From NCBI RefSeq assembly GCF_965247905.1, contig NZ_OZ252047.1, positions 196,938-260,937 on the forward strand: a stretch of DNA of 64,000 nt. Reading direction: 5' to 3'. Position numbers and translations under genes: made by a program. The notes under the pieces are model-generated. The model made no database searches and was not told the origin of the DNA. It saw only the letters and a program-made list of their open reading frames with translations. The stretch comes from Candidatus Spongiihabitans sp. (GTDB taxonomy: Bacteria; Pseudomonadota; Gammaproteobacteria; Arenicellales; Poriferihabitantaceae). Below are positions 15,972 to 63,630 of the stretch, piece by piece; the first letter of the stretch is position 1, and each line of letters begins with the position of its first letter.

Positions 15972-16105
15972 TTTGCCTGAGTGAAGGACACTAATGTTGG
16001 GTGAAACAAGCCATCAATGCACGATAATTGTTTATGGATTGTAGCGATCAGCAATGGGCTGTATTGTATGCGCCCCGTACCCGCACCAGACAAATTTCCC
16101 CATCT

Positions 16106-33487: not shown

Positions 33488-33495
33488 AAATGCGC

Positions 33496-34395: not shown

Positions 34396-34399
34396 CTTT

Positions 34400-39041: not shown

Positions 39042-39105
39042 TATCCTGATATGCCGAAATAGGTGTTGTGCAACGCGGTATGGTTGCCCGTGACGCCACT
39101 AAATC

Positions 39106-39969
39106 TTAGTCTTTTTGCGAGCAGCGCTTGCCGGTTTCCAGCACCAGACACAAAGCCAGGCACATGGTCGCCGATAAACCGCGAAAGCCGCCCACTTCCT
39201 GTTCGGGCACTTCAAGGTGCAAGACATCGGCTCTGGCAATCGGGCTTAAGGTGGAATCGGTCAAAGCCACCACCGCAACCTGCCGCGCCAGACAGATATC
39301 CACCAACTCGCACGTATTGGCGGTATACGGGTTGAAGCTAACCGCAACCAGCGCTTCGTCTCGGTGAATCAGGCTGGCCTTATCGGCCATCAAACTGGCC
39401 AGGCCGTCCAGCAACACGGCCGGCAAACCCATCTTCACAAACATATAATGCAGGTAAGTGGTCACCGGCGCGGCGCGTCCCTGCCCGGCAAGATAGATGC
39501 AACGGGCGGTCGCCAGCCGCTTGCTGGCCTGCAATATGGTCGCTTCATCCACCTGTTGTTCCAGCTTGTTGATAGAAACGCTGGCCGCCCGACTGAACCG
39601 GTGCAATACCGTTTGCTCAAGTTGCTCAGGTTGCTCAGGTTGCTCATGTTGCTTTTGGTCGTCCAGATGATGGATGCGCTGAACATAAGGCAAAGGCATG
39701 TGGCGCATGCTTCCCTGAAACACCGACTGCATGTCGGAAAAGCCGCGGTAACCGATGGCCTTGGCGAAACGCACCAGGGCTGATGGGGTTACTCGGGCTC
39801 GGTCGCTAATCACCGCAATGGTATTCAGCGCAACAACATCCGGATTATGCACTACAAATTCCGCAACCCGCTGCAAGCGTTTGGGCAAGGAAACATAGCG
39901 CTTTTGCAGCCACGGTCTTATCTCGCTGAATACCCTGGGCGGTTTTTGGCTTATCGCATTAGACATCAC
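39106..39969 (-). CDS. RpiR/MurR-family transcriptional regulator (likely iol regulator)
   Basis: N-terminal HTH_6 plus a C-terminal SIS domain. Divergent from the sugar ABC operon. Contains a 9-bp x 5 tandem repeat (EQPEQPEQLEQ). Confidence 0.85.
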   Translation of the reverse strand: MMSNAISQKPPRVFSEIRPWLQKRYVSLPKRLQRVAEFVVHNPDVVALNTIAVISDRARVTPSALVRFAKAIGYRGFSDMQSVFQGSMRHMPLPYVQRIHHLDDQKQHEQPEQPEQLEQTVLHRFSRAASVSINKLEQQVDEATILQASKRLATARCIYLAGQGRAAPVTTYLHYMFVKMGLPAVLLDGLASLMADKASLIHRDEALVAVSFNPYTANTCELVDICLARQVAVVALTDSTLSPIARADVLHLEVPEQEVGGFRGLSATMCLALCLVLETGKRCSQKD

Positions 39970-40075
39970 AGTCCCGAATCATAAATAAGTCATAAACAAG
40001 GTTGCTCGAAACAAATAATCGTTAGGCGTTGCGCCCCGCATGGGCAGCGAAGTATACACAATCCGAAGTCTATTT

Positions 40076-40122
40076 GGAATAAATATTCTATTTTAAATAT
40101 AGTTGCAATTTAAATTCTATTA
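40076..40122. promoter_or_regulatory. AT-rich candidate operator pair in the rpiR/ABC divergent intergenic region
   Basis: GGAATAAATATTCTATTTT (40076-40094) and TTGCAATTTAAATTCTATTA (40103-40122). A closely related pair in the same order recurs at 59489-59536. Confidence 0.3.
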
Positions 40123-40207
40123 AGGTATGTTAGGGTATTATGCGCTGAAGAATATTATTTAGCCCTGAATATTTTATTTTACAACCAACTTCCTCATGGG
40201 GGGATAT

Positions 40208-41164
40208 ATGAAACCACTTAATTTATTTGCGTCCGCGGCATTGTTCATGGCAATGGCTGCGCCGCTGGCGATGACGAGCACGAGCGTCGCGGCGGAAGGC
40301 GAGAGATATGTTCTGATCAGCCATGCGCCGGATTCCGACAGCTGGTGGAACACCGTCAAGAACGGCATTGCCCTGGCCGGTTCACAGATGGGCGTCGAGG
40401 TTGAATACCGCAACCCGCCGACCGGTGATCTGGCCGACATGGCTCGCATCATCGAGCAAGCGGCGGCTTCTAATCCGAACGGCATCATCACCACCTTGGC
40501 GGATTACGACGTTCTGTCCGGCGCGATCAGAAACGCGGTCGATCAGGGCATCAACGTGATCATCATGAACTCGGGATCGCCAGAGCAGGCGCGCGAAGTC
40601 GGGGCGCTGATGTATATTGGCCAGCCCGAGTATGACGCTGGCCATGCGGCCGGCCTGCGCGCCAAAGGCGACGGCATTGGCTCTTTCCTCTGTGTCAACC
40701 ACTATATCTCCAATCCGTCCTCGACCCAGCGCTGCCAGGGTTTCGCGGATGGTCTGGGGGTGGAGCTCGGCAATCAGATGATTGATTCCGGCCAGGATCC
40801 TTCCGAGATTAAAAACAAGGTGCTGGCCTATCTTTCGGCCAACCCAGGCACTGACTCAATCCTGACTCTGGGGCCAACCTCGGCCGACCCGACCATTGCC
40901 GCGCTGCAAGAAAACGGCATGGCCGGCGACCTCTATTTCGGCACCTTCGATCTCGGCACCGAGATCGTGAAAGGCATCAAGGCGGGCATCATCAACTGGG
41001 GAATCGATCAACAACCCTTCCTGCAAGCCTACCTGCCCGTTATTGTCCTGACCAACTATGACCGTTATGGCGTGCTGCCCGGCAACAACATCAACTCCGG
41101 CCCGGGCTTCGTCACCAAGGATGGCCTGACCCTGGTCGAAAAGTACGCTGGCGAATACCGCTAG
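40208..41164 (+). CDS. Sugar (inositol-type) ABC transporter periplasmic binding protein
   Basis: Signal peptide MKPLNLFASAALFMAMAAPLAMT. Peripla_BP type I pattern. Located in an iol context. Confidence 0.85.
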   Translation: MKPLNLFASAALFMAMAAPLAMTSTSVAAEGERYVLISHAPDSDSWWNTVKNGIALAGSQMGVEVEYRNPPTGDLADMARIIEQAAASNPNGIITTLADYDVLSGAIRNAVDQGINVIIMNSGSPEQAREVGALMYIGQPEYDAGHAAGLRAKGDGIGSFLCVNHYISNPSSTQRCQGFADGLGVELGNQMIDSGQDPSEIKNKVLAYLSANPGTDSILTLGPTSADPTIAALQENGMAGDLYFGTFDLGTEIVKGIKAGIINWGIDQQPFLQAYLPVIVLTNYDRYGVLPGNNINSGPGFVTKDGLTLVEKYAGEYR

Positions 41165-41258
41165 CGCATAACATGACCACGACATGAGCATGCCATGAAT
41201 AAGCGGCCGCGAAACCTGCGGCCGCCCTGTTCATATCCAACGATACGAGGCGCCCAAG

Positions 41259-42377
41259 ATGCCGCAGACCACACCGCCGACAACTGACGAGCGCGTCAAG
41301 GAGATATCGGGCTTTCGCAAAGCCCTGATCCGACCCGAACTGGGCAGCATTTGCGGCGTCATTCTGGTATTTGTCTTCTTTTTTCTCACGGCGCGCGACT
41401 CGGGCATGTTTTCGCCCGCGGGCGTGATGAACTGGTCGATAGTCTCGGCGCAGTTCATCATTATCGCCGTAGGCGCCTGCCTGCTGATGATTGCCGGCGA
41501 GTTCGACCTGTCGGTCGGCTCGATGATCGGTTTTTCCGGCATGTCAATTGCCCTGCTGTCGGTCAGCTTTGGCTGGCCGGTATGGCTGGCGATCATCGTC
41601 ACCTTTGTCCTGTGCGTGGCAATAGGCGCATTCAATGGCTGGCTGGTGATCAAGACCGGGTTGCCGAGCTTCATCGTGACCCTGGCATTCCTGTTTATTC
41701 TGCGCGGCCTGACCATCTTTGCCGCCATCGCCACTACCCGAAAAACCATTATTGGCGGTGTGCGCGAAGTCGCTGAAGGCGACTGGCTGGCGGCAATCTT
41801 CGGCGGCAAGGTCCTGACCGGACTGTTCCAGTGGATGGGCGATCAGGGCTGGATCGAAACATTCGTGCGCGGCACCCGGGAAGGGCAGCCGGTGGTTGAT
41901 GGCATCCCGATGTTGATGGTCTGGGCTTTGATTCTGGTTATTTTCGGCCACTGGCTGCTGACCAAAACCAAATTCGGCAACTGGATCTTCGCCGCCGGCG
42001 GCGATGCGCAGGCGGCCCGCTATGTGGGCGTGCCGGTGAACCGCGTCAAAATCATGATGTTCATGTTCACCGCCTTCTGCGCCTGCGTTTTTGCCACCGC
42101 CCAGGTGATGGAGTTCGGTTCGGCCGGGGCCGATCGCGGGCTGTTGAAGGAATTCGAGGCGATTATATCCGTTGTCATCGGCGGCGCTTTGCTGACCGGC
42201 GGATACGGTTCGGTCATCGGCGCGGCGCTGGGGGCGATTGTCTTTGGCGTGGTGCAGCAGGGGCTGTTCTTTGCCGGGGTGGAAAGCTCGCTGTTCAGGG
42301 TGTTCCTCGGGGTGATCCTGCTGCTCGCGGTGATCCTGAATACCTATATCCGGCGCATGATTACCGGGGAGAAGTAA
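41259..42377 (+). CDS. Sugar ABC transporter permease (BPD_transp_2 / RbsC-like)
   Basis: 372-aa polytopic protein with an RbsC-like pattern (GEFDLSVGS, GGYGSVIGAALGA). Confidence 0.85.
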   Translation: MPQTTPPTTDERVKEISGFRKALIRPELGSICGVILVFVFFFLTARDSGMFSPAGVMNWSIVSAQFIIIAVGACLLMIAGEFDLSVGSMIGFSGMSIALLSVSFGWPVWLAIIVTFVLCVAIGAFNGWLVIKTGLPSFIVTLAFLFILRGLTIFAAIATTRKTIIGGVREVAEGDWLAAIFGGKVLTGLFQWMGDQGWIETFVRGTREGQPVVDGIPMLMVWALILVIFGHWLLTKTKFGNWIFAAGGDAQAARYVGVPVNRVKIMMFMFTAFCACVFATAQVMEFGSAGADRGLLKEFEAIISVVIGGALLTGGYGSVIGAALGAIVFGVVQQGLFFAGVESSLFRVFLGVILLLAVILNTYIRRMITGEK

Positions 42378-42378
42378 G

Positions 42379-43185
42379 ATGGCTAAACCGCTAATCGAAA
42401 TGCAGAATGTCGAGACGATGATTGAAATGAAGGACATCGAGAAACACTTCGGCTCGGTCATCGCCTTGTCCGGCGTGTCGCTCGATTTGATGGCCGGTGA
42501 ATGTCACTGTTTGCTGGGCGACAACGGCGCCGGCAAGTCAACCTTTATAAAAACCATGTCCGGCGTGCACAAACCCTCAGCCGGCGAAATTTTTTTCGAA
42601 GGCAAGCCGCTGAGTTTCGCGCGTCCACGCGATGCCATCGTCGCCGGAATCGCCACCGTGTATCAGGACCTGGCGATGATCCCGCTGATGTCGGTGACGC
42701 GAAATTTTTTCATGGGCAACGAGCCGACCAAGAAAATCGCTGGCATCAGTTTCTTCGATCACCAGCTCGCCAATGACGTGACCATGGAGGAAATGAAGAA
42801 AATGGGTATCAACCTGCGCTCTCCGGATCAGGCGGTGGGTACGCTTTCAGGCGGCGAACGCCAGACGGTGGCGATTGCCCGGGCGGTCCATTTCGGCGCC
42901 AAGGTGCTGATTTTGGACGAGCCAACCTCGGCCCTCGGCGTACGCCAGACCGCCAATGTTCTGGCCACGGTTGACCGGGTGCGCAATCAGGGTATCGGCG
43001 TGGTGTTCATCACCCACAATGTGCGCCATGCGATGGCCGTGGGCGACCGCTTTACCGTGCTCGACCGCGGCAAAACGCTGGGCACCGCGAAACGCGGTGA
43101 AATTACCCCCGAGGAATTGCAAAACATGATGGCCGGCGGCCAAAAACTGGCGACGCTGGAAGGCTCGCTGGGCGGCACGGTTTAG
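42379..43185 (+). CDS. Sugar ABC transporter ATP-binding protein (single NBD)
   Basis: Walker A GDNGAGKST, signature LSGGERQTVAIAR, Walker B LILDEPT. Confidence 0.85.
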   Translation: MAKPLIEMQNVETMIEMKDIEKHFGSVIALSGVSLDLMAGECHCLLGDNGAGKSTFIKTMSGVHKPSAGEIFFEGKPLSFARPRDAIVAGIATVYQDLAMIPLMSVTRNFFMGNEPTKKIAGISFFDHQLANDVTMEEMKKMGINLRSPDQAVGTLSGGERQTVAIARAVHFGAKVLILDEPTSALGVRQTANVLATVDRVRNQGIGVVFITHNVRHAMAVGDRFTVLDRGKTLGTAKRGEITPEELQNMMAGGQKLATLEGSLGGTV

Positions 43186-43317
43186 CGGCTGCGGTTGGCC
43201 GGCCGAATTATTCCCTACATATGATGTCCGCGGCTACGATGACCGCGGCTAGCGCCCAAACCAACTCCCCGGAGTTGCCCGGACAAACTGAATTAATGGT
43301 TTATAAGCGATAGTGGC

Positions 43318-44442
43318 ATGAAAGAAATAGGTGTCGGTGTCATCGGCACCGCTTTTATGGGCAAAGCCCATTCACTCGCTTACGCTATAGCCGGGACTGC
43401 ATTTGGCGATGGCCTGAGACCGCGCCTGGAAGTGTTGTGCGATATTAACGCACAGCGGGGCCAGGCCAAACGGCAGGAAATGGGCTTTGCCCGCTCGACA
43501 ACCCAATACATGGACGTGATAAACGACCCTAAGGTGGAACTCATTTCGATATGCGTCCCCAATGTCGTCCACAAGGAAATTGCTGTGGCCGCGCTCAGGG
43601 CTGGCAAGCATGTCTGGTGCGAAAAGCCAATGGCGACTAATGTGGCCGAGGCGGAGGAAATGCTGGCCGCGGCGCGCGCTTCAGACCGCCAGACCATTCT
43701 GGGTTATAATTATACTCAGAACCCATTAGTTCATGCGGCGCGCCAACTGATTGAGGAGGGCGCCATAGGACGCGTCATCGGCTTCCACGGCATCTACGAT
43801 GTGGACAATGAAGCCGATCCAGACCGCCCTCATAGCTGGAGAATGAATCGGGAAGCGTCGGGTTGCGGCGCCAACGCGGATCTAATGTGCCATCTGGTAA
43901 GCATGGCCCACTTCATGACCGGCAGCGAAGTTGCCCGTTTGGTTGGAGACTACGACACGGTGCACCAGCAACGCAGCGACCCCAAGAATCAGGGTCGGAC
44001 GCTTGCGGTGGATAATGACGATGTTTGCACCGCGCTGGCGCATTTCGCCAGTGGCATCAAGGGCACTCTTCGCGTCAGCCGCGTTGCTTGGGGGCGCAAA
44101 TGCGGTTTGCGCTGGGAAATCCACGGCTCCCAAGGCATGATTTGTCACGATCAGGAACGTCTCAACGAAATCAAACTATATGCTCGCAACGAAGATCCCC
44201 GTCAGCAGGGATTCCGAACCATTCTATCCGGGCCCTGCCATCAACCCTATGATGCGTTCCTGCCCAATGCCGGCCATGCGCTCGGGTTCATCGATGTCAA
44301 GGCTTGCGAACTGCACAAGTTACTGACCGCGATTACAACGGGCGAACCCGCCTGGCCCAGCTTTGAAGACGGCATCAAAATTGAGCGAGTCATGGATGCC
44401 ATCGACCGTTCGGTCCTGTCAGGCCAGTGGCTGGATGTCTAA
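43318..44442 (+). CDS. Gfo/Idh/MocA-family oxidoreductase
   Basis: N-terminal Rossmann motif GVGVIGTAFMGKAH and the WCEKP motif. Confidence 0.85.
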   Translation: MKEIGVGVIGTAFMGKAHSLAYAIAGTAFGDGLRPRLEVLCDINAQRGQAKRQEMGFARSTTQYMDVINDPKVELISICVPNVVHKEIAVAALRAGKHVWCEKPMATNVAEAEEMLAAARASDRQTILGYNYTQNPLVHAARQLIEEGAIGRVIGFHGIYDVDNEADPDRPHSWRMNREASGCGANADLMCHLVSMAHFMTGSEVARLVGDYDTVHQQRSDPKNQGRTLAVDNDDVCTALAHFASGIKGTLRVSRVAWGRKCGLRWEIHGSQGMICHDQERLNEIKLYARNEDPRQQGFRTILSGPCHQPYDAFLPNAGHALGFIDVKACELHKLLTAITTGEPAWPSFEDGIKIERVMDAIDRSVLSGQWLDV

Positions 44443-44811
44443 CGCCGCTTGCGGCTTGACGATAGCACTCACCCATGCACTGATTGGCAACGATGACGAG
44501 TTTGCCGCGCTATGCGATAACCTTGCCAGATAGAGCACAACGGCACGATCAGGTAATGATACTCAAGCGCGCAACGAATCCTTTACGCACGCAAGGCTCA
44601 TTCAGGCCATGCGGTGCGGGGGACGCTGTTCTCGTTAACCTGCCAGTCCACTGCATGAACACGGGTAACTGGCTCGAAGCCGTGGAGGCCGGTGGTGCAG
44701 CTGCCGCCCTGGTGGCATCGCAACGCGGTTGTGCCGCAGGCCCGCTTCCGATCAACTTAAATTCCTGCAGCAAAAGCAACCCATGAATCCTGCCGCCAAC
44801 TGGAGCTGACC

Positions 44812-44894
44812 TTGCATATTCCACACCACGACAACCAGAACCAGCCGATCGTAAACCGCAACGACAGCAGGGCTCCACTGTGTTTCTTTAACAT
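44812..44894 (+). pseudogene. 5' fragment (27 codons) of a second iolB paralog, split by the IS30 composite transposon
   Basis: GGAG followed by a TTG start at 44812. It reads (M)HIPHHDNQNQPIVNRNDSRAPLCFFN and joins in frame to 52905 onward (IVKLKKRETF...) once the transposon and one CAT copy are removed. Confidence 0.6.
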
Positions 44895-45955
44895 GGTGGT
44901 TTCTAGTTTCTATTGCAACAATTCATTAAAAGCCTCAAAAGGCGTTTTCCAGTTTAACGCGTTACGCGGTCGTCCATTTAATCGGTCTTGAGCCTTGCGC
45001 GCTTGATAAGCGCTGACTTGATTAAAGTCAGCGCCTTTCGGAAAGCGCCGCCTGATCAAGCCGTTGGCGTTCTCATTGGCGCCTCGTTCCCATGGACTGC
45101 GTGGAGGGGCAAAACAGACCGGCATGCGGGTCTCTTTCGTGAACAATCGATGCGCTGGCATCTCTTTGCCCTGATCATGGGTCAGGGTTGGTTTCATCTG
45201 TTTCGGTGTCGTTCGTGATTTGCGCGCAAACGCCTTGCGCGCCGTTTCGGCGTCCGGTCTCTTCAAGCGAACCAGCAACACCGTCCGGGTGGCGCGCTCA
45301 CCTAGCGCGCCAAGAGCGGATTGATGGCGTGCGCCCAGGATCAAGTCGCCTTCCCAATGACCGGGCACAGCGCGCTCAGCCACTTGCGCAGGCCGCTCTT
45401 CAATACTGATCATCTCCGGGATACGACCCCGACGGTCATTGCCCCGGCTCCGTGGCCGCCGCGCTGGTCGATGCTGCCGTAAACAACGCAACAGGGATTG
45501 ACGCAGACTCCCCCGAGGCAATACATACAAATACGTATAGAGGGTTTCGGCGCACACGCGCATCCGTTCATCCCCAGGATAATCTATCTTGAGCTTGGCG
45601 CTGATTTGAGCCGGCGACCACTGCTTGCGAAGTCCGTTGATGACGAGCCGACGCAAACCCGGGTCTTGAACCAACTTGCCCAAACGACGATAACACCGCC
45701 GCCGCGCCTTGTTGTCAGCGGTGACCGCCAAGTAATAAAATCCGCGCTTGTTACGGTTGATTTCACGACTGATGGTTGATGGGCTTCGATAGAGTGGACC
45801 GGCGATTGCACGGATGCCCGCACCACAATGACACAATACGCCGATGGCCTCTCGCTCCACCAAGCATAGACGACGATAAGCCTTCATTATTCAACGCCTC
45901 GCTTGATATTGTTGTACTCATACTATAGGTGTTGCGTTAGAATTTAGAGACCACC
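44895..45955 (-). mobile_element. IS30-family element, copy A
   Basis: Imperfect TIRs: GGTGGTTTCTAGTTTCTATTGCAACA... and ...TGTTGCGTTAGAATTTAGAGACCACC. 1061 bp. Confidence 0.85.
44910..45887 (-). CDS. IS30-family transposase
   Basis: 325 aa. HTH N-terminus plus a DDE core (HWEGDLI..., THDQGKEM, ANENANGLIRRRFPKG). Confidence 0.9.
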   Translation of the reverse strand: MKAYRRLCLVEREAIGVLCHCGAGIRAIAGPLYRSPSTISREINRNKRGFYYLAVTADNKARRRCYRRLGKLVQDPGLRRLVINGLRKQWSPAQISAKLKIDYPGDERMRVCAETLYTYLYVLPRGSLRQSLLRCLRQHRPARRPRSRGNDRRGRIPEMISIEERPAQVAERAVPGHWEGDLILGARHQSALGALGERATRTVLLVRLKRPDAETARKAFARKSRTTPKQMKPTLTHDQGKEMPAHRLFTKETRMPVCFAPPRSPWERGANENANGLIRRRFPKGADFNQVSAYQARKAQDRLNGRPRNALNWKTPFEAFNELLQ

Positions 45956-46031
45956 TTATTAAAAACCGTAACATCGATAATATAAACAGTTACTGAGGAA
46001 TCCCCAATTTCAGTGCCAATGCCATTGAGAA

Positions 46032-49000
46032 TTATTTACTGTCATTATCTTCCTCCCCAAACACACGAAACTGCTGCGACGTGGTGGCCGCATCCAATGA
46101 AATCTCTACAGATGAAGCGACCGCTTCAAGTTGACTCAGGGGATTATTAAGCACCTTTAACTCGTACTCTACGGTCTCGGTATCGATGGGTGTGAATCTG
46201 TATATGTAATATTTGTTCTTCCACTTGGCTGCCGTATTGACCTCGTTGATAGTCAATTTTACACGACCACCTGACCGTTTTTCCTTAGCCTCAATCACCC
46301 GCTCTATCAAAGCCGAACTCTGATCATCACCGGATTCGAATAAAGCCCTGTCTTCGGCACTGCGAAAACTAAGTAGGTCAGCGGTAATTGTTTCATAACC
46401 TGTTATATGGCCAATATATAAAGGGAATCTTCCTTGCTTCTCTTCAAATAGCTTCGCTAGGTCCTCGCCAGCTTTCCCGTCAGACGTTGCAGTAGAACCT
46501 GCTACCGCTCCGCCTAAGCCCGAGCCGCCACCTGATACGCGTACTCCTACACGGGCACCAGGTTTCTCGGTCACATGTTCTACTGGTTCGACGCCAATAG
46601 CCGAAGGCACATCCCAACCAGTCGTGGCTGGCTCAGGTTCAGCCGCAACGGATTGTACTGTGGGTTTTAAAGGAGGAGTTGGAGGAGGAACATTAGGCGA
46701 CGCCCCTTGAACAGGCCCTATGATCACCGAAGGTTCAGGCATCACTTGTTCTGCAGCCCCTTCGATCAAAGTCTGCAACATTGAATCTAAATCATCGTCA
46801 AGGTTATCCCCTAACATTTTACTCAGTAACTCAGGGCGTATTGACGCATCACATTGATAAATTTTCGAGAATGAGTCACCGTCGATAAGCCCAAAGATAG
46901 AAGCGATGGCATCACCGATCGTATTTGCCAACAATGGATTGTATGGGTCACCTGCATTTACGGGATTACAACAGACATAAAGATAACCGTCTTGAATTGA
47001 GTAAGACCAATGTGGCAAAGGATTATCCAATGTTTCTTGCTTAAAGGTAATTTGACTTTGTGCCTGCTCGCAAACCACAAGTTCTAACCCTTCAAATATA
47101 TTTCGACCTGGCGCTTTAGCAAAGTGACTGTGACGATAGATTTCTATGTACTTTTTAGCCGATTGGAAATGTTGATTGGCCAGCTCGGTACAAGCGGCAA
47201 CGCGGTGGCCAATAACTTTCTCATTGACCGCCTCTTTATCCAAAACATTGACCCTGAATAGACGCCGGACCTTATCAGCTCCACGCTTTTTGAGCAAACA
47301 GGCAACAGGAAGTGATTTCAGTAACTCTTGGGGAAAACCTTCCACGTCGACGTGGTAAGTCTCATTAACTGGGAAGTAGCCTTGCTCATCGCCGTGCTTA
47401 GCATAAATTCTACCTTCCTCAGCGAAGGCTTCGTAGTTAGCTCCGGTTTCATCTAGTTCAAAATCGACTGTTTTGATTAGAAAATTGTACAACTTTTTCG
47501 CCAAATCACCAGAGGTATCCTTTTCTGGTAGTTCAGCTAACAAGGCATAGATTTCCTCGGAGTCGAGATCGTCAACACTCTCTCTGACTCCCGCATTTAT
47601 CCAAGCATGTTTCAGCAGGCTTTGAGACAAGCTTAATTCCTCCATGCTTACTATTGTTGGCATTATCGGTCTGGGAAATAAACCCGCGACGGCTGCATCA
47701 TTCACCATACAATCAATAGGTGCCAGCGGCTTAAGCTTATTAGCCCTTAGCCATGGGCTGTATTTGACTTTCCAACGAATATACGATGGCAGTTCGCCTT
47801 GATAAATTCGAGCATACCGTGCCCTTGAAGGATAAAAACTCAACGTGCCATGTTGCTCGGAACCTTTTAACCAGGAAACAGCTCGAGGGTCATTGGCCAA
47901 CCAAGCTAAGATAGCGTCGCTCTCGCTAGAAAGAATCACATCAATATCATCAAGCGACTTTACAAACTGGAATTTGCTATTAGTAGGTAGCTTTTTTACA
48001 GAGTCGAAAACGTGTATAGCATTTTCTCCAAATATAGCGGGGTATTTTAGCCTTTGCTTTGCGTAATCAAGAAATTCCGACTCGACCTGCATATTGTCAC
48101 TTAGCCTTGGCCATTCAGCCACGCCTAACCAAGCTAGAAATGTAGGTAGCGAGGCTCGCTCGATTCCCATTGATTCGTAAACTGATGACTCAGCTGCTAA
48201 TTTTCTTGGCGCAGATTGATACAGCCGACTAACGATATCTCCCGCAGCGGTATAGCCTGCACCAATGTAGAGTTGACTGGCACCCACCCACTCTGAGTTC
48301 TGGTTTAAAAGAATAGCATTCAATCGTTTAGGGAATTCTGGACGATCTTCCTCATTGCTATAAGAACTAAACAGCGTAAAGAGCGAATGCAATAATGCAG
48401 AACGGACTTGATCCTCATCCAGCTCATTGACTGCGACATTGGCTGACGAGACTAGACCTGCAATCATATTACCTAAGGAATATTCATGCACATCGAAAAC
48501 AGCTAAGTCTCGGGCGCTATCTCTTACCTTATTCCCCCGAAGCAACCCCCAGAGCCGTTCATTGAGTATTTTAACTTTTGCCCATTCAGGAAACACCAAC
48601 CCATCAGTTAAACTACTGCCAGGTAAATACACACCATCATCTTCGGATAGCTCATCACCCTGAGTATCTAACAACAGTCCCTTATAGCAGTAATCACTCC
48701 CCAAACGTTGATTGATTATCCCTAAAGCCACTGCTGCCCGCTGCTCCAGAGTTATATCGCTAGCCGCTTGCAATTGCGCGACAAACTGCTCACCCTTTAT
48801 GTGCTCAACACCCAGTCGATCAAACAGCTGCTTCTCCGTGGCGTTTCTAGCCATAACAATAGAGGGGAATATAGTTGCTGGTAACCATTCCAAAGCATTA
48901 ACACCCTTAGGGGAAGCAAACACTTCTGCTGCCGTGAGCATATCGCCAGACAGTACAGGAAGGATATTCCGTGTTTTAATCGCGTCGATTAAGGCCCCCT

Positions 49001-50195
49001 GTAAAGATTTAATATCCGACTGGTAGTCTTGCTGTAGCGAAGCAGGGTCAAGTAAATCTAGAGCACGATAGACATCACCGGACGCATCGACCTGCCGTTC
49101 AAAGATATCAGCCAAGAAAAGTGCTAAGCACTCCAGCACATAATCATTCGCCTCGCCTTCCCGCAAATGTTTACGATTTTGTTCCAACTCTAAGCTTGCA
49201 TGACATAAAGCGTGGAGAGGAAGCGGTATGGAAGTGGGGAAAAAGGAATACAAGTTCGCTGGCTCAGCCAATCCTTCATCGTTTAAAGCAACTATTAGTT
49301 GATAACTATCGGGGTCATCACTATCGCGCAGGAGGTCGTTTGGAATTTCACCTGTATCACTGAATAGCCTCCATCGCTTGCAGGTTTCGATATCACTATT
49401 AGGATCAAGCTCAGTAAGGTCAACCAAGTGTTCAGAAACAACCTCCGAACTCCATTCTTTAACCCAAGTCTCGTCCTCATGTTCACCAACTACTGAAACC
49501 GACAACGACTCAATGGAATCAGAAAACAGTAAAAATTCAGGGCGCAATAAGCTTAACTGATTAAGTGCATTATCATAGCTGTGAGCGCTGCCAAATGGCA
49601 TACCGACAACTGTCTCAAAACCAGTTTCAATCAACGATTCACAATTCTTGAACAAATCCGCATCAACGACAAAATGGCGCAGCTCAACTTTCGACAAATC
49701 GACCGGGAATGGTAATAAGGGTACTGGGTCAGTAGCCTCCCCCTGGTATTTCGCTAACTCTTCGCCTACAATGCTATATTGGCTTTTTAATTCATCTACT
49801 AAGCCATGAGCATAACGACTGCTAAAGGCCAGTTGTAACGCGCCACTAATAATCATCGGGTGGCGGGACCAATTGAGCACTGAACGAAAGCCCAAGCCTT
49901 TGCTGCCGATCAGCTGGCTATTTTTCGCGCGCTTGGGGCTTAAGTCAGCCGTTTGCAGCGAACTGACCCCACCTGTGGTAAAACCTAGTCCTGTATTCGC
50001 AACAATCAAGCCTTGGGGAGTGAGTTCAATCCGAATACGACTGCGTTGACCTGCTTTCCTAGCTGCATCCGCAGCGTTCTGTAACAGCTCAAGAATTTCG
50101 CGGCCTTTGTAGTCCCGAGAAATACCCTCTTCGCGTCGCTGATCAGCAACTAACTGGGAGGGTTTAATTCGGGAACTATCAAGGAAAGTTGACAA
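46032..50195 (-). CDS. Giant GHKL (sacsin/MORC-like) ATPase with a C-terminal DUF3883 restriction-endonuclease-like domain; 5' end displaced by a MITE insertion
   Basis: Bergerat motifs ILELLQNAADA, VANTGLGF, IGSKGLGFRSVLNW near the N-terminus. The C-terminal roughly 120 aa has a (D)...E-x-K pattern (ITADLLSF...IERVIEAKEK...LTINEVNTAAKWKNKYYIYRF) typical of DUF3883. The annotated TTG start lies inside the MITE terminal repeat. Confidence 0.8.
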   Translation of the reverse strand: MSTFLDSSRIKPSQLVADQRREEGISRDYKGREILELLQNAADAARKAGQRSRIRIELTPQGLIVANTGLGFTTGGVSSLQTADLSPKRAKNSQLIGSKGLGFRSVLNWSRHPMIISGALQLAFSSRYAHGLVDELKSQYSIVGEELAKYQGEATDPVPLLPFPVDLSKVELRHFVVDADLFKNCESLIETGFETVVGMPFGSAHSYDNALNQLSLLRPEFLLFSDSIESLSVSVVGEHEDETWVKEWSSEVVSEHLVDLTELDPNSDIETCKRWRLFSDTGEIPNDLLRDSDDPDSYQLIVALNDEGLAEPANLYSFFPTSIPLPLHALCHASLELEQNRKHLREGEANDYVLECLALFLADIFERQVDASGDVYRALDLLDPASLQQDYQSDIKSLQGALIDAIKTRNILPVLSGDMLTAAEVFASPKGVNALEWLPATIFPSIVMARNATEKQLFDRLGVEHIKGEQFVAQLQAASDITLEQRAAVALGIINQRLGSDYCYKGLLLDTQGDELSEDDGVYLPGSSLTDGLVFPEWAKVKILNERLWGLLRGNKVRDSARDLAVFDVHEYSLGNMIAGLVSSANVAVNELDEDQVRSALLHSLFTLFSSYSNEEDRPEFPKRLNAILLNQNSEWVGASQLYIGAGYTAAGDIVSRLYQSAPRKLAAESSVYESMGIERASLPTFLAWLGVAEWPRLSDNMQVESEFLDYAKQRLKYPAIFGENAIHVFDSVKKLPTNSKFQFVKSLDDIDVILSSESDAILAWLANDPRAVSWLKGSEQHGTLSFYPSRARYARIYQGELPSYIRWKVKYSPWLRANKLKPLAPIDCMVNDAAVAGLFPRPIMPTIVSMEELSLSQSLLKHAWINAGVRESVDDLDSEEIYALLAELPEKDTSGDLAKKLYNFLIKTVDFELDETGANYEAFAEEGRIYAKHGDEQGYFPVNETYHVDVEGFPQELLKSLPVACLLKKRGADKVRRLFRVNVLDKEAVNEKVIGHRVAACTELANQHFQSAKKYIEIYRHSHFAKAPGRNIFEGLELVVCEQAQSQITFKQETLDNPLPHWSYSIQDGYLYVCCNPVNAGDPYNPLLANTIGDAIASIFGLIDGDSFSKIYQCDASIRPELLSKMLGDNLDDDLDSMLQTLIEGAAEQVMPEPSVIIGPVQGASPNVPPPTPPLKPTVQSVAAEPEPATTGWDVPSAIGVEPVEHVTEKPGARVGVRVSGGGSGLGGAVAGSTATSDGKAGEDLAKLFEEKQGRFPLYIGHITGYETITADLLSFRSAEDRALFESGDDQSSALIERVIEAKEKRSGGRVKLTINEVNTAAKWKNKYYIYRFTPIDTETVEYELKVLNNPLSQLEAVASSVEISLDAATTSQQFRVFGEEDNDSK

Positions 50196-50386
50196 GCCCC
50201 GGATTCACTTGACTTCCCGCATAACTAGCTTACCGCCGACAACAACGAGTTTAAAGTGACGTTTGAGGTCTGATTTTTTAACAAGAGGCACCTTACCACG
50301 AGGTTTCGGCATAGCTAACAAAGCGCGGGTGGATTTATCTGTTTGTTTCATTCTTGGCGTTTTGTCAACTTTCCTTGATAGTTCCC
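50171..50386. mobile_element. MITE-B (216 bp) with perfect 25-bp terminal inverted repeats and an 8-bp TSD
   Basis: GGGAACTATCAAGGAAAGTTGACAA (50171-50195) and its exact reverse complement (50362-50386). They are flanked by TTTAATTC at 50163-50170 and 50387-50394. Confidence 0.85.
50205..50351 (-). CDS. 48-aa basic ORF inside MITE-B (speculative)
   Basis: ATG at 50351. Encodes MKQTDKSTRALLAMPKPRGKVPLVKKSDLKRHFKLVVVGGKLVMREVK. Below the track length cutoff and with no family signal. Confidence 0.2.
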   Translation of the reverse strand: MKQTDKSTRALLAMPKPRGKVPLVKKSDLKRHFKLVVVGGKLVMREVK

Positions 50387-50530
50387 TTTAATTCCGTAAA
50401 CCTGAAGAGCAATGTCCTGCTGCTCCGCCAGCCAAATGCTCCATTCGACGGCACTGCCTAGAGCAAGACCCTCTGTGGACATTTCACGCTCGGGTGTAAT
50501 GACGACAGGGTTTAGCGGCTCTTGGGCCAT
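50387..50530 (-). pseudogene. Original first 48 codons of the giant GHKL/DUF3883 gene, separated by MITE-B
   Basis: MAQEPLNPVVITPEREMSTEGLALGSAVEWSIWLAEQQDIALQVYGIK joins in frame to PSQLVADQRREEGISRDYKGREILELLQNAADA when the MITE and one TSD copy are removed. Confidence 0.7.
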
Positions 50531-50739
50531 GGCTTAAACAAATCCTTGTGGGCTAGTCATTCTTAGTCACCTATATATTGGTATCAGATCAGGCAGCATA
50601 CATCTCGCCAACAAGCTGATCGACCGAATGAATTAGATCAATATCTGACACTGAAAAATTTTTTTAGTTTTCCTCTTCTGGCAGTTCTTTTAGGGCTTCA
50701 TTTAATCCTCTGTAAGGCGCAAAAGCCTCTCGGATAATC

Positions 50740-51198
50740 CAGATTATTGCATGGCTCTCCTTCTGGATCGGAGTGCCAAAGGTATCTGAGCTTATACACC
50801 TGTTTATCGCGGCCTATGACGCCAAATACCCGAAGGCGACGCTGTGCTTACAGAAAGACCGGGAGGAGCTGATGGCATTCTACGACTTTCCCGCCATGCA
50901 CTGGCAGAGCATCCGCACCAGCAACCAGATTAATCGACCTTCGGCACCATCCGGCACCGAACCATCCGGCACCGAACCAAGCGCTCAAAGGGCTACCTCT
51001 CCAGAGATGGCATGCTACACATGATGTTCAAGCTGGGCATGTGTGCGGAGAAAAAATGGCATCGCCTGCGCGGGTTTAACTACTTGGCGAAGGTGATCAC
51101 GGGAATAGAATTTAAAGATGGAATCGAGGTAAAAGAAATTGACCGGGTCGCCGCTTGAATCAGGTGCTGAAACACCACTTTTGACAATAACTCTGTCC
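50740..51198 (+). pseudogene. IS256-family transposase 3' remnant (5'-truncated, frameshifted, 15-bp internal duplication) with IS terminus
   Basis: Encodes ...YPKATLCLQKDREELMAFYDFPAMHWQSIRTSN, then after a frameshift STFGTIRHRTIRHRTKRSKGYLSRDGMLHMMFKLGMCAEKKWHRL. The end ...CTTTTGACAATAACTCTGTCC is IS256-like. Confidence 0.75.
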
Positions 51199-51404
51199 TA
51201 TAGTTCATTTTCTTTGATTTCTGCAATACGCATCAATGCTTTTTGGAGTCCTGTCTTCAGGTCTTTATTTCCATGGACTGGAACCGAAATACGTTCTCTT
51301 CTTCCATCCATGATAAATATATGGTGACTGCTTGAGATTCTTTTCAATTCCCAGCCTTTTCGTTCCAAAAGTTTACACAATTCTTTGCCGGAGACGGTTT
51401 TCAT
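51198..51404 (-). CDS. hicA: HicA-family mRNA interferase toxin
   Basis: 68 aa. SGKELCKLLERKGWELKRISSSHHIF...ISVPVHGNKDLKTGLQKALMR is the HicA dsRBD-like signature, including the catalytic His. Confidence 0.85.
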   Translation of the reverse strand: MKTVSGKELCKLLERKGWELKRISSSHHIFIMDGRRERISVPVHGNKDLKTGLQKALMRIAEIKENEL

Positions 51405-51604
51405 ACCGCTAACTCTATAACTTCAGCTTCTTCATCGACTTCCGGCTCCTCGATATCAATGGATAAACAGCCAAGAATTGCATCTTCGATATTTATTTTT
51501 ATTTCTTTCATTGTATCACCTTGTGACACACATCCGGGTATTGAGGGCACTTCAGCCCAAAAGCCACCTTCTTCTGCTTTGTGAACTACAACTTTAATTT
51601 TCAT
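51401..51604 (-). CDS. hicB: HicB-like (UPF0150) antitoxin, short form
   Basis: 67 aa. VVVHKAEEGGFWAEVPSIPGCVSQGDTMKE...NIEDAI is the HicB N-terminal RNase-H-like partial fold. 4-nt overlap with hicA. Confidence 0.8.
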   Translation of the reverse strand: MKIKVVVHKAEEGGFWAEVPSIPGCVSQGDTMKEIKINIEDAILGCLSIDIEEPEVDEEAEVIELAV

Positions 51605-51840
51605 AGGAACAACATACCTGCATAGCGTTAATTTTTCAATTCATAAATAGAACGTCGAAGTTACTCATTTTAATTTAATTAGCTCTTAATGTTCTGTAAA
51701 ATGGTATGCTCCAGTGTTCCATTCGTATTACAGACTATCCAACGCTTACTAACATTACTTTCGAATGCCTCAAAATGAGCCTAATAGTTGCTCTTGTTTG
51801 ATTCTCTCCAACTTCAACTACCATAATATTCATTTTCATT

Positions 51841-52901
51841 GGTGGTCTCTAGTTTCTATTGCAACAATTCATTAAAAGCCTCAAAAGGCGCTTTCCAGTT
51901 TAACACGTTACGCGGTCGTCCATTTAATCGGTCTTGAGCCTTGCGCGCTTGATAAGCGCTGACTTGATTAAAGTCAGCGCCTTTCGGAAAGCGCCGCCTG
52001 ATCAAGCCGTTGGCGTTCTCATTGGCGCCTCGTTCCCATGGACTGCGTGGAGGGGCAAAACAGACCGGCATGCGGGTCTCTTTCGTGAACAATCGATGCG
52101 CTGGCATCTCTTTGCCCTGATCATGGGTCAGGGTTGGTTTCATCTGTTTCGGTGTCGTTCGTGATTTGCGCGCAAACGCCTTGCGCGCCGTTTCGGCGTC
52201 CGGTCTCTTCAAGCGAACCAGCAACACCGTCCGGGTGGCGCGCTCACCTAGCGCGCCAAGAGCGGATTGATGGCGTGCGCCCAGGATCAAGTCGCCTTCC
52301 CAATGACCGGGCACAGCGCGCTCAGCCACTTGCGCAGGCCGCTCTTCAATACTGATCATCTCCGGGATACGACCCCGACGGTCATTGCCCCGGCTCCGTG
52401 GCCGCCGCGCTGGTCGATGCTGCCGTAAACAACGCAACAGGGATTGACGCAGACTCCCCCGAGGCAATACATACAAATACGTATAGAGGGTTTCGGCGCA
52501 CACGCGCATCCGTTCATCCCCAGGATAATCTATCTTGAGCTTGGCGCTGATTTGAGCCGGCGACCACTGCTTGCGAAGTCCGTTGATGACGAGCCGACGC
52601 AAACCCGGGTCTTGAACCAACTTGCCCAAACGACGATAACACCGCCGCCGCGCCTTGTTGTCAGCGGTGACCGCCAAGTAATAAAATCCGCGCTTGTTAC
52701 GGTTGATTTCACGACTGATGGTTGATGGGCTTCGATAGAGTGGACCGGCGATTGCACGGATGCCCGCACCACAATGACACAATACGCCGATGGCCTCTCG
52801 CTCCACCAAGCATAGACGACGATAAGCCTTCATTATTCAACGCCTCGCTTGATATTGTTGTACTCATACTATAGGTGTTGCGTTAGAATTTAGAGACCGC
52901 C
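51841..52901 (-). mobile_element. IS30-family element, copy B
   Basis: Same sequence as copy A apart from a few substitutions. The ends are GGTGGTCTCT... and ...GAGACCGCC. Confidence 0.85.
51856..52833 (-). CDS. IS30-family transposase
   Basis: 325 aa. Differs from copy A at 2 residues near the C-terminus (NVLNWKAPF versus NALNWKTPF). Confidence 0.9.
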   Translation of the reverse strand: MKAYRRLCLVEREAIGVLCHCGAGIRAIAGPLYRSPSTISREINRNKRGFYYLAVTADNKARRRCYRRLGKLVQDPGLRRLVINGLRKQWSPAQISAKLKIDYPGDERMRVCAETLYTYLYVLPRGSLRQSLLRCLRQHRPARRPRSRGNDRRGRIPEMISIEERPAQVAERAVPGHWEGDLILGARHQSALGALGERATRTVLLVRLKRPDAETARKAFARKSRTTPKQMKPTLTHDQGKEMPAHRLFTKETRMPVCFAPPRSPWERGANENANGLIRRRFPKGADFNQVSAYQARKAQDRLNGRPRNVLNWKAPFEAFNELLQ

Positions 52902-53661
52902 CATCGTAAAACTAAAAAAGAGGGAAACCTTCCGCTCACAAGTTGAAGGCTACGAAACCTGTATCGTGCCGACTACCGGCAGTATTGATGTCATTGTACC
53001 GGGCGCATCTTACCAGAAGGTGGGAAAGCGCAGGCATATCTGGGAAGGCGATCCAGAAGGCGTCTATATCCCCACGGGTGTTGAGGCCAATCTTAACTGC
53101 GTGAGTGATGCGGCGGAAGTTTTCATCGCCGGCGCTCGACACGACGAAGTATATGAACCCTTCGTCGTGCGTGAGAGCGACATCGACCCGGTACAGTATG
53201 GCTCCGATGACACTAAAACCCACCGCAAGATCAAACACATTCTAGGCAAGAGTCCGGCAGGAAAAGTCGGCCGGCTGCTGGTAAGCGAGCTGTTTACAGT
53301 GGGCGCCGGCGGCTGGTCCGGATTTCCGCCACACAAGCATGATACCGATCATCTGCCCGAGGAAACCCGTCACGACGAGGTGTATCACTTTCGTTTCAAT
53401 CCATCTCATGGATTCGGAGCCCAGTTTCTCACTCAGGCAGGAGAAGATTACGGCGATGTCTGCCACATCCGAAACAGGTCCACTATCCTCATCGACCAGG
53501 GCTACCACCCCTGTGTCGCTGCTCCCGGATACGAAATGTACTACTTTACGGTGCTCGCAGGCCTGTCGCAGAGACCCTTGCACCAGCGCTTCCATCCGCA
53601 ACACGCTTACCAACTGGACACCATCCCCGGCATCAAAGACATGATCAACAAGTTCAAGTAG
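52902..53661 (+). pseudogene. 3' portion (about 252 codons) of the second iolB paralog (5-deoxy-glucuronate isomerase family)
   Basis: IolB signatures GWSGFPPHKHD...LPEETRHDEVYHFRF and GYHPCVAAPGYEMYYFTVLAG. The reading frame is open right up to the IS30 end. Confidence 0.75.
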
Positions 53662-53724
53662 CGCATTACACTTGCTTGAACCTGTTCAGATTCTTCTGAC
53701 GCTGCCCTGCCCGCGCCGCTCGCT

Positions 53725-54642
53725 TTATAAAGGCGCCGTCGGGTCATCGAGATCCATATCGATCCACACCGGTTGGTGGTCCGAAGCATCGGCCGCGCCG
53801 TCGATATGGATGCTACGCACCCGATCCGCCAGATTGGCCGTGACGAAGCAATAATCCAAACAAGTATCGGTATCCGCGCCTCCTTCGGCGGCATTAGCCA
53901 CGGCTGGAGAAGTCACCCTGTCGTTCTCTCCATGGCCGGCCACCACCCAGGCGTCGAGAAAGCCGTCGCGCCGAACAAGCCGACCATGGCGCGGCGACAA
54001 GGGGCCTGCGATCAAGTCATATTGAGTGGAGCCTGGAACGAAATTCAAGTCACCCATTAACATGGCCGGGCGCGGCATTGGCGGCTCTTCGCCTTCGGTC
54101 CACCCGGCATCAGGGTTCGGATGACCGCCGCACCAGGCGCCGCCTTCGGTCGGCGCCTGATCGATGATGTTGAGTAACGCCTCAATTTGGGGGCCGCGGG
54201 TTTCCGCCGACAAGTGGCTGAGATGGGCGGAATAGACGCGCACCGGCCCGGCCGGCATATCAATTACCGCTTCCAGCAGGGACTGCTGGATGCTGTGCTG
54301 GGTTAGCGTTCCATATTTCGGAAGCGGAAAACCGCGGCTCGAGATGATCGGCAAGCGCGACATCAGCATGATGCCGAACTGGCGGCGGCGGTTGATCAGG
54401 CGATTGTGTTCGTTGCGGTAACTCGCATCCATGTCCAAACCGGGTGCGTAGACCCAATGAAAATCAGGCAGGAGCTCGGCCAAAACGGCGACCTCGTCAA
54501 CGTTTCCTGAGCGTTTCCAAAACCGTTCAACCTCTTGCAGGGCAATAACGTCCCCGCCCTCGACCGCCTTGGCGGTGCGCTTCAAATCGTATTGCCCGTC
54601 CCGACCCAGCCCGTATTGGATGTTGTAGGTGACTATCTTCAC
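53725..54642 (-). CDS. Endonuclease/exonuclease/phosphatase (EEP) family hydrolase
   Basis: The N-terminus KIVTYNIQYG, LQEV, GDLNF and the C-terminal SDHQPV are the EEP catalytic motifs. Confidence 0.8.
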   Translation of the reverse strand: MKIVTYNIQYGLGRDGQYDLKRTAKAVEGGDVIALQEVERFWKRSGNVDEVAVLAELLPDFHWVYAPGLDMDASYRNEHNRLINRRRQFGIMLMSRLPIISSRGFPLPKYGTLTQHSIQQSLLEAVIDMPAGPVRVYSAHLSHLSAETRGPQIEALLNIIDQAPTEGGAWCGGHPNPDAGWTEGEEPPMPRPAMLMGDLNFVPGSTQYDLIAGPLSPRHGRLVRRDGFLDAWVVAGHGENDRVTSPAVANAAEGGADTDTCLDYCFVTANLADRVRSIHIDGAADASDHQPVWIDMDLDDPTAPL

Positions 54643-54701
54643 TTCGCAATTTCCTCAATTCGAGTTTGATGCCCATTGCCGACGGTTGCAACCCCGGAAA
54701 G

Positions 54702-55760
54702 CTATATCCTGTCCCCGTGCTCGTCAAAGAAGAACACGGCATTGACATCTATGCCCCAATGAATTTGATCGCCGAGCTTGCAGGTTTGTTCGCCGCTTTG
54801 AATCGAGCGGAAGATTTGTCCGCCGCCGAGCTTGAGGTCGTAGAGAATTTCTCGGCCCTGGCTTTCAACAAAGGTGACTTCACCTTCAATAGCGGTTGCG
54901 AAATCCGGCTGCAGGCATTCGGGGCGGACGCCAATGGCGATTTTTTGTCCGGCCGACACCGACGCCCCCTTGATCTGAGCCGGTAATTCAAAGCTCAGTC
55001 CATGGGCGACAAAACGGCCGTCTTCAACCAAGCCATCGGCAAACGATATCGGCGGGTTGCCGATGAAGCCGGCGATAAATTTGTTCTTGGGTTGGTGGTA
55101 CATTTCATCAGGCGTTCCGATTTGCTGAATCTTGCCCTTGTGCATCAAGGCAATGCGATCGCACATGCTCATTGCTTCGACCTGATCGTGGGTAACTAGA
55201 ATGGACGTGCAGCCGGATTCCCGCTGAATTCGGCGGATTTCGCTACGCATATCGAGCCGCAGCCCCGCGTCGAGATTGGCCAACGGCTCATCCATCAACA
55301 AAACGTCCGGCCTGCGCACCAGGGCTCGGGCCAAGGCGACTCGCTGCTGCTGGCCGCCCGAAAGTTGGCCGGGCCGGCGACCCAGAAGCTCTTCTATGTG
55401 CAGGGTGTTGGCGATATCCTTAACCTTGCGCTCAATATCGGCATTGCTCTCTTTGCGAATTCGCAACGGAAAAGCGATGTTCTCGTAAACGCTGAGGTGC
55501 GGGTACAGGGCGAATGACTGGAACACGACGCCGGCTTTCCGCTGCTGAGGCGCTAACTGGGTGACCTCGCGATCGCCGAACCAAATCCGCCCGGCGCTTA
55601 CCCGGTGCAGCCCGCAGATGGCGTACAGCGTTGTTGTCTTGCCGCACCCCGACGGCCCCAACAGGGCGATCATTTCGCAATCGCCGATGGCCAGGTCCAG
55701 ATCCTCAATCACCTTGACCGGGCCGAATGATTTCGAGAATTTTTCCAATCTGATTTCCAT
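54702..55760 (-). CDS. Sugar ABC transporter ATP-binding protein (MalK/UgpC type)
   Basis: Walker A GPSGCGKTT, LSGGQQQRVALARAL, LLMDEPL, plus a C-terminal TOBE-like regulatory domain. Confidence 0.9.
   Translation of the reverse strand: MEIRLEKFSKSFGPVKVIEDLDLAIGDCEMIALLGPSGCGKTTTLYAICGLHRVSAGRIWFGDREVTQLAPQQRKAGVVFQSFALYPHLSVYENIAFPLRIRKESNADIERKVKDIANTLHIEELLGRRPGQLSGGQQQRVALARALVRRPDVLLMDEPLANLDAGLRLDMRSEIRRIQRESGCTSILVTHDQVEAMSMCDRIALMHKGKIQQIGTPDEMYHQPKNKFIAGFIGNPPISFADGLVEDGRFVAHGLSFELPAQIKGASVSAGQKIAIGVRPECLQPDFATAIEGEVTFVESQGREILYDLKLGGGQIFRSIQSGEQTCKLGDQIHWGIDVNAVFFFDEHGDRI

Positions 55761-61182: not shown

Positions 61183-63630
<2,448 letters not shown>

Follow-up and report, generated by a model that had tools for sequence, protein, structure and literature searches.

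An IS30-family composite transposon with a candidate defence cargo splits a KduI/IolB-family paralog in the sponge symbiont Candidatus Spongiihabitans

Insertion sequences (ISs) of the IS30 family are approximately 1.0-1.25 kb long, encode one DDE transposase with an N-terminal helix-turn-helix (HTH), end in inverted repeats of 20-30 bp and produce target duplications of 2-3 bp, and they transpose by a copy-out/paste-in process that passes through circles or IS dimers. When two copies of such an element enclose other DNA, the result is a composite transposon, of which Tn6330 (ISApl1-mcr-1-pap2-ISApl1), an IS30-family composite that mobilised colistin resistance, is an example; its outer flanks represent the new duplication, and its inner flanks are ancestral fingerprints (PMC5821093). 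The present work concerns a 64,000-nucleotide stretch of DNA (contig NZ_OZ252047.1, positions 196,938 to 260,937, referred to here as the window) from the chromosome of Candidatus Spongiihabitans sp., a member of a genus known as a sponge symbiont (PMC12988363). Within the window, an 8,007-bp composite transposon, which consists of 5,885 bp of cargo between two directly oriented copies of an IS30-family element, interrupts a paralog of the inositol catabolism gene iolB.

By structural analogy, Tn6330 is the closest counterpart of this 8-kb unit. In both cases two direct IS30-family copies of about 1.06 kb surround a short cargo, the outer ends carry a new short duplication, and the mismatched inner flanks can be read as fingerprints of older, separate insertions; the later decay of the unit by truncation or loss of IS copies also has its parallel here, in a related strain represented by the metagenome contig ENA ERZ26167708 (regions L081 and L082). 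The two differ in that the duplication here has 3 bp and that of Tn6330 has 2 bp, that the transposase is at most 45% identical (tblastn) to IS30-family genes on sequenced plasmids, that the cargo comprises a candidate defence gene and a toxin-antitoxin pair instead of a resistance gene, and that the host is an uncultured sponge symbiont in which one insertion site is known. The explanation of the locus as a whole which we regard as quite probable is the insertion of an IS30-family composite at a CAT target in a single step, followed by later decay.

A base-by-base comparison placed the two IS copies, each of 1,061 bp and in direct orientation, at 44895-45955 and 51841-52901 (both read on the minus strand), and a repeat search gave a start-to-start distance of 6,946 bp. 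The copies are 99.6% identical and mismatch at four positions (44901, 44945, 44959 and 45953, equivalent to IS positions 7, 51, 65 and 1059), with no difference in the central 990 bp. Each contains one uninterrupted open reading frame (ORF) of 325 amino acids on the minus strand (44910-45887, WP_424947207.1, in the left copy; 51856-52833, WP_424947212.1, in the right), with HTH_38 and rve domains. The transposase matches the NCBIfam model for the IS30 family transposase (NF033563) with 268 bits against a cut-off of 80, over profile positions 1-266 of 267; of its Pfam domains, HTH_38 is over its cut-off and rve, with 28.1 bits, is slightly under its cut-off of 32.6. The terminal inverted repeats are 26 bp long, with 22 of the 26 bases matching, and the ends of the element read GGTGGTCTCTAG... 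and ...TTAGAGACCACC. Compared with the inner ends, each outermost inverted repeat carries one base change (window 44901 and 52899; IS positions 7 and 1059).

The single HTH and DDE transposase, the length, the inverted repeats and the 3-bp duplication, which is read from the composite alone and not from a solitary IS copy, all fall within the ranges of the IS30 family. The point of difference is novelty: beyond the cluster of transposases formed at 90% identity, the next relative has 83% protein identity, and on this distance the 1,061-bp element appears to be previously undescribed. At the level of the composite, two copies of the same IS surround the cargo, both transposase ORFs are open, one duplication brackets the whole unit with none around each IS, and the related strain provides an empty site.

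The trinucleotide CAT is found on both outer flanks (44892-44894 and 52902-52904), and the inner flanks, TTA at 45956-45958 and ATT at 51838-51840, match neither CAT nor each other. The original prediction for this locus, which was made from the sequence without database searches, had given these flanks as well as the coordinates, direct orientation and near-identity of the IS copies, and every one of these particulars was confirmed. A match of 3 bp between two flanks arises by chance 1 time in 64, and is by itself insufficient; the case that the insertion was precise therefore rests on the protein that is rebuilt when the unit is removed, on its gapless alignment with homologs, and on the empty site in the related strain.

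Excision of 44895-52904 joins ...CTGTGTTTCTTTAACAT to CGTAAAACTAAAAAAG and produces one open frame of 279 amino acids, which starts with the TTG at 44812, eight bases after a GGAG, and stops at 53661. A scan of one genome per species yielded 597 relatives of the rebuilt protein, of which the best 80 all match query residues 1-279; the closest homolog genes among these 80 have exactly 279 codons, and the best identity, 81%, is found in marine Gammaproteobacteria. When the first 96 residues are aligned with nine homologs there is no gap at the join, the residues N27 and I28 that straddle it are invariant, and the MHIP start of the rebuilt protein is conserved. Because the reading frame is kept with or without the 3-bp duplication, it is the gapless fit that shows that the original gene had a single CAT. 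The frame predicted by virtual excision is thus continuous and aligns without a gap over residues 1-279.

The gene is left in two plus-strand fragments, the first (44812-44894) carrying the TTG, codons 1-27 and two bases of codon 28, and the second (52905-53661) resuming at the last base of codon 28, continuing to the stop and matching the Pfam family KduI (PF04962; E 2e-65, profile positions 54-261). The rebuilt protein reaches 170.7 bits on TIGR04378, the model for IolB equivalogs, under the cut-off of 205, and by score it is not an IolB equivalog; the canonical iolB, which scores 322 bits on the same model, lies at 34400-35353 within an iolG-E-B-D-C cluster. Since the score is below the cut-off and a canonical iolB is present elsewhere, the term "iolB paralog" that had been proposed for the split gene is correct, in the sense of a KduI/IolB-family paralog. 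Region L082 of the related-strain contig holds the uninterrupted sequence CTGTGTTTCTTTAACATCGTAAAACTAAAAAAG with one CAT, an empty-site allele that is identical to the predicted join and that belongs to an intact 279-aa KduI gene reading GTTCCACTGTGTTTCTTTAACATCGTAAAACTAAAAAAGAG across the site. The insertion is therefore precise and is accompanied by a 3-bp duplication, and the intact allele that the original prediction had suggested should be sought in related strains exists, with the sequence expected of it.

The related contig requires a fuller description, because it bears on how the unit has behaved since its insertion. The 1.06-Mb contig encodes proteins identical to the UgpC-like ATPase and the HicA of the window, the flanks of the unit in L082 are 99.5-99.8% identical to those of the window, and GyrB is 99% identical; by these identities the contig is that of a sister strain. 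The sister strain has the same cargo order and the same right junction as the window (IS end, CAT, and a truncated KduI fragment of 231 amino acids), and in place of the clean left junction it has the intact KduI gene. This gene and the 285 bp downstream of it, which together correspond to window 52902-53946, run directly into the left IS: position 53946 of the window is followed by 45610, and the two meet at 12 bp of microhomology, GCCGGC(C/G)ACCAC. The fusion leaves L082 with 1,045 bp in duplicate, in copies that are 1.3% different; the regions concerned are 15561-16703 and 5655-6699.

On the simplest reading of this arrangement, a strain that carried the intact allele would have taken in the unit and its right flank from a window-like donor, in an event that looks as if it was anchored by homology on one side and closed by an illegitimate joint on the other. 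The clean left junction occurs in the window-type arrangement only, which makes the window-type arrangement the older of the two. The reverse order, with the L082-like state as the ancestor, was considered and rejected because that state cannot produce the clean left junction of the window, and the possibility that L082 is an assembly chimera was rejected on the argument, made without recourse to reads, that a 12-bp microhomology is not something on which an assembler would join.

The copy of the unit in the sister strain has also decayed. Its left IS is truncated, its right IS contains a nested 1,266-bp IS5-like element (L082 6734-7999), the transposase gene of the right IS has lost 210 bp (window 52394-52603), and a 740-bp IS1595-like element with an 8-bp duplication lies upstream of hicB (L082 8987-9726). 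Outside the unit, the two strains are separated by a 373-bp indel between the ABC (ATP-binding cassette) transporter ATPase gene and the Gfo/Idh/MocA-family dehydrogenase gene (window 43219-43223 against L082 17928-18300), at which no terminal repeats are evident. The divergence between the IS copies of the window, 0.4%, is about equal to that between the flanks of the two strains (0.2-0.5%), which implies that the insertion is at least as old as the strain split or else has passed between the strains since. The description of the event as clean and recent is accordingly not supported, given that a sister strain diverged by 0.2-0.5% shares the right junction along with much secondary decay.

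The question of whether the IS copies and the cargo arrived together depends on evidence beyond the flanks. The cargo (45956-51840; 45% G+C overall) has a G+C content of 39-49%, against 54-60% in the flanks, and DNA of such low G+C content in the middle of a gene is indicative of foreign origin. In the 3.03-Mb genome, the cluster of transposases at 90% identity has two full-length members, WP_424947207.1 and WP_424947212.1, which are the two copies described here, and its remaining members are three fragments belonging to the decayed copies of the sister strain. With no other copy of the IS in the genome there is no sign of an independent life of the element, and the arrival of IS, cargo and IS as a single piece is favoured. 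Genes for replication or mobilisation are absent from the cargo, so the insert is neither a whole plasmid nor a small plasmid fused by an IS dimer. These features of the sequence make arrival and insertion in one piece the most likely course. The original prediction had reached the same view from the flanks, which alone do not discriminate between the possible histories; what sustains it is the foreign composition of the cargo and the restriction of the IS to these two copies.

Several observations weigh against a one-step insertion of the composite. The unit is known at one site, so its movement is inferred rather than seen twice: searches of plasmids, phages, protein clusters and metagenome loci found the unit at no second site, and its other occurrence is at the same site in the sister strain, so that the expectation of the same IS30-bounded cargo elsewhere was not borne out. 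No donor was found either, since the plasmid collection matches the IS256 remnant in the cargo only and the phage collection matches nothing; the IS itself has no megablast match among the plasmids, and the transposase reaches at most 53% identity in a scan of JGI metagenomes. The 3-bp duplication cannot be checked on other copies of the IS, as none exist, and the related copy with 83% identity (L163), which lies on a contig of 2x coverage, has a left end without an inverted-repeat match, so that no duplication is readable there. Both strain sequences, moreover, come from metagenome-derived assemblies. Apart from these points, the locus in a sister species (L164) is not syntenic and provides no second empty site. 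Look-ups of exact proteins found no entry for the Gfo gene or the ABC ATPase, for the giant ORF of the cargo as listed, for the left transposase or for P0121, and those of the UgpC-like ATPase and HicA led to L081 and L082.

Matching outer flanks would be equally expected if a lone IS30-family copy had first made the CAT duplication and a circle carrying the IS and the cargo had later been taken up by this first copy, whether through RecA-dependent recombination or because IS ends were targeted in the IS30 manner. Such a two-step history would leave the same structure and the same flanks, the confinement of the four differences between the copies to the extreme ends of the IS, on either side of an identical central 990 bp, is compatible with a crossover in the middle of the IS, and the rearranged locus of the sister strain shows that recombination, besides transposition, has reshaped this region. 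Yet the genome has no other copy of the IS and no sign of the IS moving alone, a solitary IS at this site was found in no strain, and two rare events are needed where one suffices; we consider such a history rather unlikely. A different possibility is that transposition took place elsewhere and that the interrupted locus was then acquired by homologous recombination of its flanks, that is, by allelic replacement through transformation or transduction. In the sister strain, the joint at the 12-bp microhomology on one side and the homologous flank on the other, together with the duplicated 1,045 bp, point to this kind of import into a strain with an intact allele, and for the window it is a possible, if doubtful, course of events: both of its junctions are clean transitions from IS end to CAT, its flanks show no testable break in identity, and the proposal concerns spread after insertion and does not replace an original transposition.

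There remains the view that two ISs inserted independently into native DNA, or that an assembly artefact duplicated one IS. In its favour, assemblies typically go wrong at repeats of about 1 kb, and a 3-bp flank match has the 1-in-64 chance noted above. Against this, the DNA between the copies is foreign by composition and interrupts a gene that relatives and L082 have in one piece, the copies differ at four positions and encode two distinct proteins with separate RefSeq accessions, and an independently assembled strain shares the right junction, the cargo order and part of the left copy, all of which make this view very improbable.

The largest feature of the cargo is a giant ORF of 1,387 amino acids (46032-50195) whose TTG start lies inside a perfect 25-bp inverted repeat. 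The arms of this repeat (50171-50195 and 50362-50386; GGGAACTATCAAGGAAAGTTGACAA) enclose a 216-bp element at 50171-50386, which is flanked by an 8-bp direct repeat, TTTAATTC, at 50163-50170 and 50387-50394. Removal of the element and of one TTTAATTC fuses an upstream ORF of 60 amino acids in frame and restores a protein of 1,424 amino acids that starts MAQEPLNP. Homologs of 1,400-1,430 amino acids align with 98-100% of it; the best of them, annotated as "sacsin N-terminal ATP-binding-like" in Undibacterium parvum, is 66% identical. The restored N-terminus is conserved in the homologs through the insertion point (...ALQVY.IKP.QLVADQRRE...), and the sister strain has no such element and a single TTTAATTC, which is the corresponding empty site. 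The element is short, has no transposase, and has terminal inverted repeats, a target duplication and an empty site; by these features it is a miniature inverted-repeat transposable element (MITE) that interrupts the gene and severs its first 47 codons. The gene is accordingly divided on the minus strand into a main part, from codon 46 of the restored protein to the stop (46032-50170), and a 5' fragment (50387-50530) which has its ATG at 50530, holds the first 47 codons and includes the second TTTAATTC. The MITE contains an ORF of 48 codons with no Pfam match, its repeats match neither the IS1595-like nor the IS5-like element nested in L082, and one of its repeat ends recurs in the window at 1424-1448.

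Tiamat (TmtA), which is included in PADLOC/DefenseFinder, has been listed as a single-gene anti-phage system with a PD-(D/E)xK nuclease domain (bioRxiv 10.1101/2024.10.26.620412). The restored protein matches the PADLOC profile for TmtA (PDLC03964) with 767 bits and an E of 1e-230, residues 5-1143 of the protein falling on positions 21-1139 of the 1,538 in the profile. It resembles Tiamat also in its length of about 1,420 amino acids and in the N-terminal motif ELLQNAADA, of the GHKL-type, sacsin-like ATPase kind, for which the Pfam SACS match is under its cut-off. At the C-terminus there is a weak signal for NOV_C/DUF3883 (E 7e-4; 20.1 bits, under the cut-off of 22.1); more distant full-length homologs carry this last domain (PF13020). 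The differences are the partial coverage of the profile, the 66% identity of the closest homolog, and the fact that the gene is broken in both strains. On the basis of the profile match and the homologs, the giant gene is a candidate Tiamat-type (TmtA) single-gene anti-phage system, and it is referred to here as tmtA.

In the sister strain tmtA has an in-frame TAG at codon 700, which lies in a 750-bp patch (window 47600-48350) that is approximately 11% diverged from the window, compared with a difference of about 1% or less outside it, a pattern which suggests that the patch is a gene-conversion tract from another allele. The gene is thus intact in neither strain, split by the MITE in the window and stopped by the TAG in L082, and these two lesions show that it was inactivated independently in each.

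The rest of the cargo consists of a remnant and a gene pair. The remnant (50800-51197, plus strand) is the frameshifted 3' end of an IS256-family element, encoding the C-terminus of the transposase (Pfam Transposase_mut, positions 294-340 of 379), and resembles plasmid-borne IS256-family transposase genes, with a DNA identity of about 72%. The pair, on the minus strand, is formed by hicA (51198-51404), which encodes a toxin of 68 amino acids that matches Pfam HicA_toxin with 66 bits and has an identical protein in L082, and by a hicB-like antitoxin gene (51401-51604; 67 amino acids; Pfam HicB_lk_antitox, 32.6 bits). Type II HicAB systems are resembled in that both domains are over their Pfam cut-offs and the genes overlap by 4 bp, but the antitoxin is short and without a recognisable DNA-binding extension, and the order is hicB followed by hicA. 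Taken together, these assignments describe the cargo as a putative small defence and addiction module, composed of the candidate tmtA, hicB-hicA and a dead IS256 fragment. The original prediction had rightly named the cargo as a GHKL/DUF3883 gene with hicBA, which can now be sharpened to a TmtA homolog, and had missed the MITE and the IS256 remnant; its description of the transposon as intact holds for the IS copies and fails for the giant gene, which the 216-bp MITE has broken.

These elements can be assembled into a probable history under the one-step insertion of the composite. In the donor, two older and separate IS insertions would have bracketed the cargo, leaving TTA and ATT as the inner flanks. 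A transposase of the IS30 DDE type would then have acted on the two outermost inverted repeats, and the whole unit would have left an incoming replicon and inserted at the CAT of codons 27/28 in the KduI/IolB-family paralog, with duplication of the CAT. The insertion would have been tolerated because its target was probably dispensable. Decay after insertion is observed directly, as the MITE in tmtA in the window and as the nonsense codon, nested IS, 210-bp deletion and truncated left IS in the sister strain.

The proposal that the target paralog was probably dispensable before the insertion follows from its surroundings. Upstream of the split gene are the genes for an inositol-type ABC transporter and a Gfo/Idh/MocA dehydrogenase, and the gene order in eleven relatives is transporter, Gfo/Idh/MocA dehydrogenase, PfkB-family kinase and KduI paralog. 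All of the kinase that the window retains is a frameshifted remnant (44474-44756, plus strand) from the C-terminal third of this PfkB-family sugar kinase, identified by tblastn with residues 186-294 of the kinase from one of the other loci (L001) in two frames and by a weak Pfam PfkB match; the kinase is intact in the relatives and wholly absent from the sister strain. That the kinase was already a remnant and that a canonical iolB is present 10 kb away suggests that the loss of the paralog carried little cost.

A bolder interpretation is that the unit serves as a vehicle for anti-phage and addiction genes among sponge-symbiont strains, that tmtA has been selected against repeatedly after the unit had become established, and that the unit spreads by homology-anchored illegitimate recombination and not by transposition. 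The joint in L082 and the 1,045-bp duplication suggest the mode of spread, and the independent knock-outs of tmtA, by the MITE in one strain and by a nonsense codon in an 11%-divergent recombined patch in the other, would in such a vehicle reflect selection against the gene; on present evidence this interpretation is somewhat unlikely.

The event itself is real and ordinary in kind, and it does not change the known workings of such elements. Its value is that of a well-documented case from outside the clinic, proved by an empty site, of an IS30-family composite transposon which carries a candidate defence gene and a toxin-antitoxin pair and not antibiotic resistance. It adds one new IS30-family element and one new MITE to the catalogue for an uncultured sponge symbiont, and it illustrates how quickly such units decay in IS-rich symbiont genomes; some interest attaches to the defence cargo, to the independent inactivation of tmtA in each of two strains, and to the arrangement that recombination has left in the sister strain.

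The wider setting of the locus is chromosomal. The window contains gyrB at 61183-63624, whose product is 100% identical to a protein of Candidatus Spongiihabitans sp. on a 3.03-Mb contig, and in L081 gyrB is followed by dnaA and dnaN, a context which places the locus on the chromosome close to the replication origin. Between dnaN and gyrB, in the usual place of recF, no gene was called in an interval of 730-885 bp (L081 1419-2149; L164 9117-10000), and recF may have been lost or have decayed in both Ca. Spongiihabitans genomes examined. A search of Rfam returned no match in 43000-55000. Window 32489-44442 holds a complete inositol catabolism cluster, whose minus-strand genes (iolG, iolE, iolB, iolD and a fused iolC-aldolase gene) are followed by an RpiR regulator and finally by the ABC transporter and dehydrogenase genes of the plus strand; given this cluster, the canonical pathway looks intact despite the broken paralog. 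Mobile DNA is also abundant in the window: one example is an ISNCY-family element at the start (approximately 48-1397), which has a transposase gene of 408 amino acids at 84-1310 and a 17-bp direct repeat, ACTCTTTAATCAAATTC, on either side (31-47 and 1398-1414). This element sits within another copy of an element whose left end is outside the window and whose other end, at 1424-1448, is the 25-bp repeat of the MITE.

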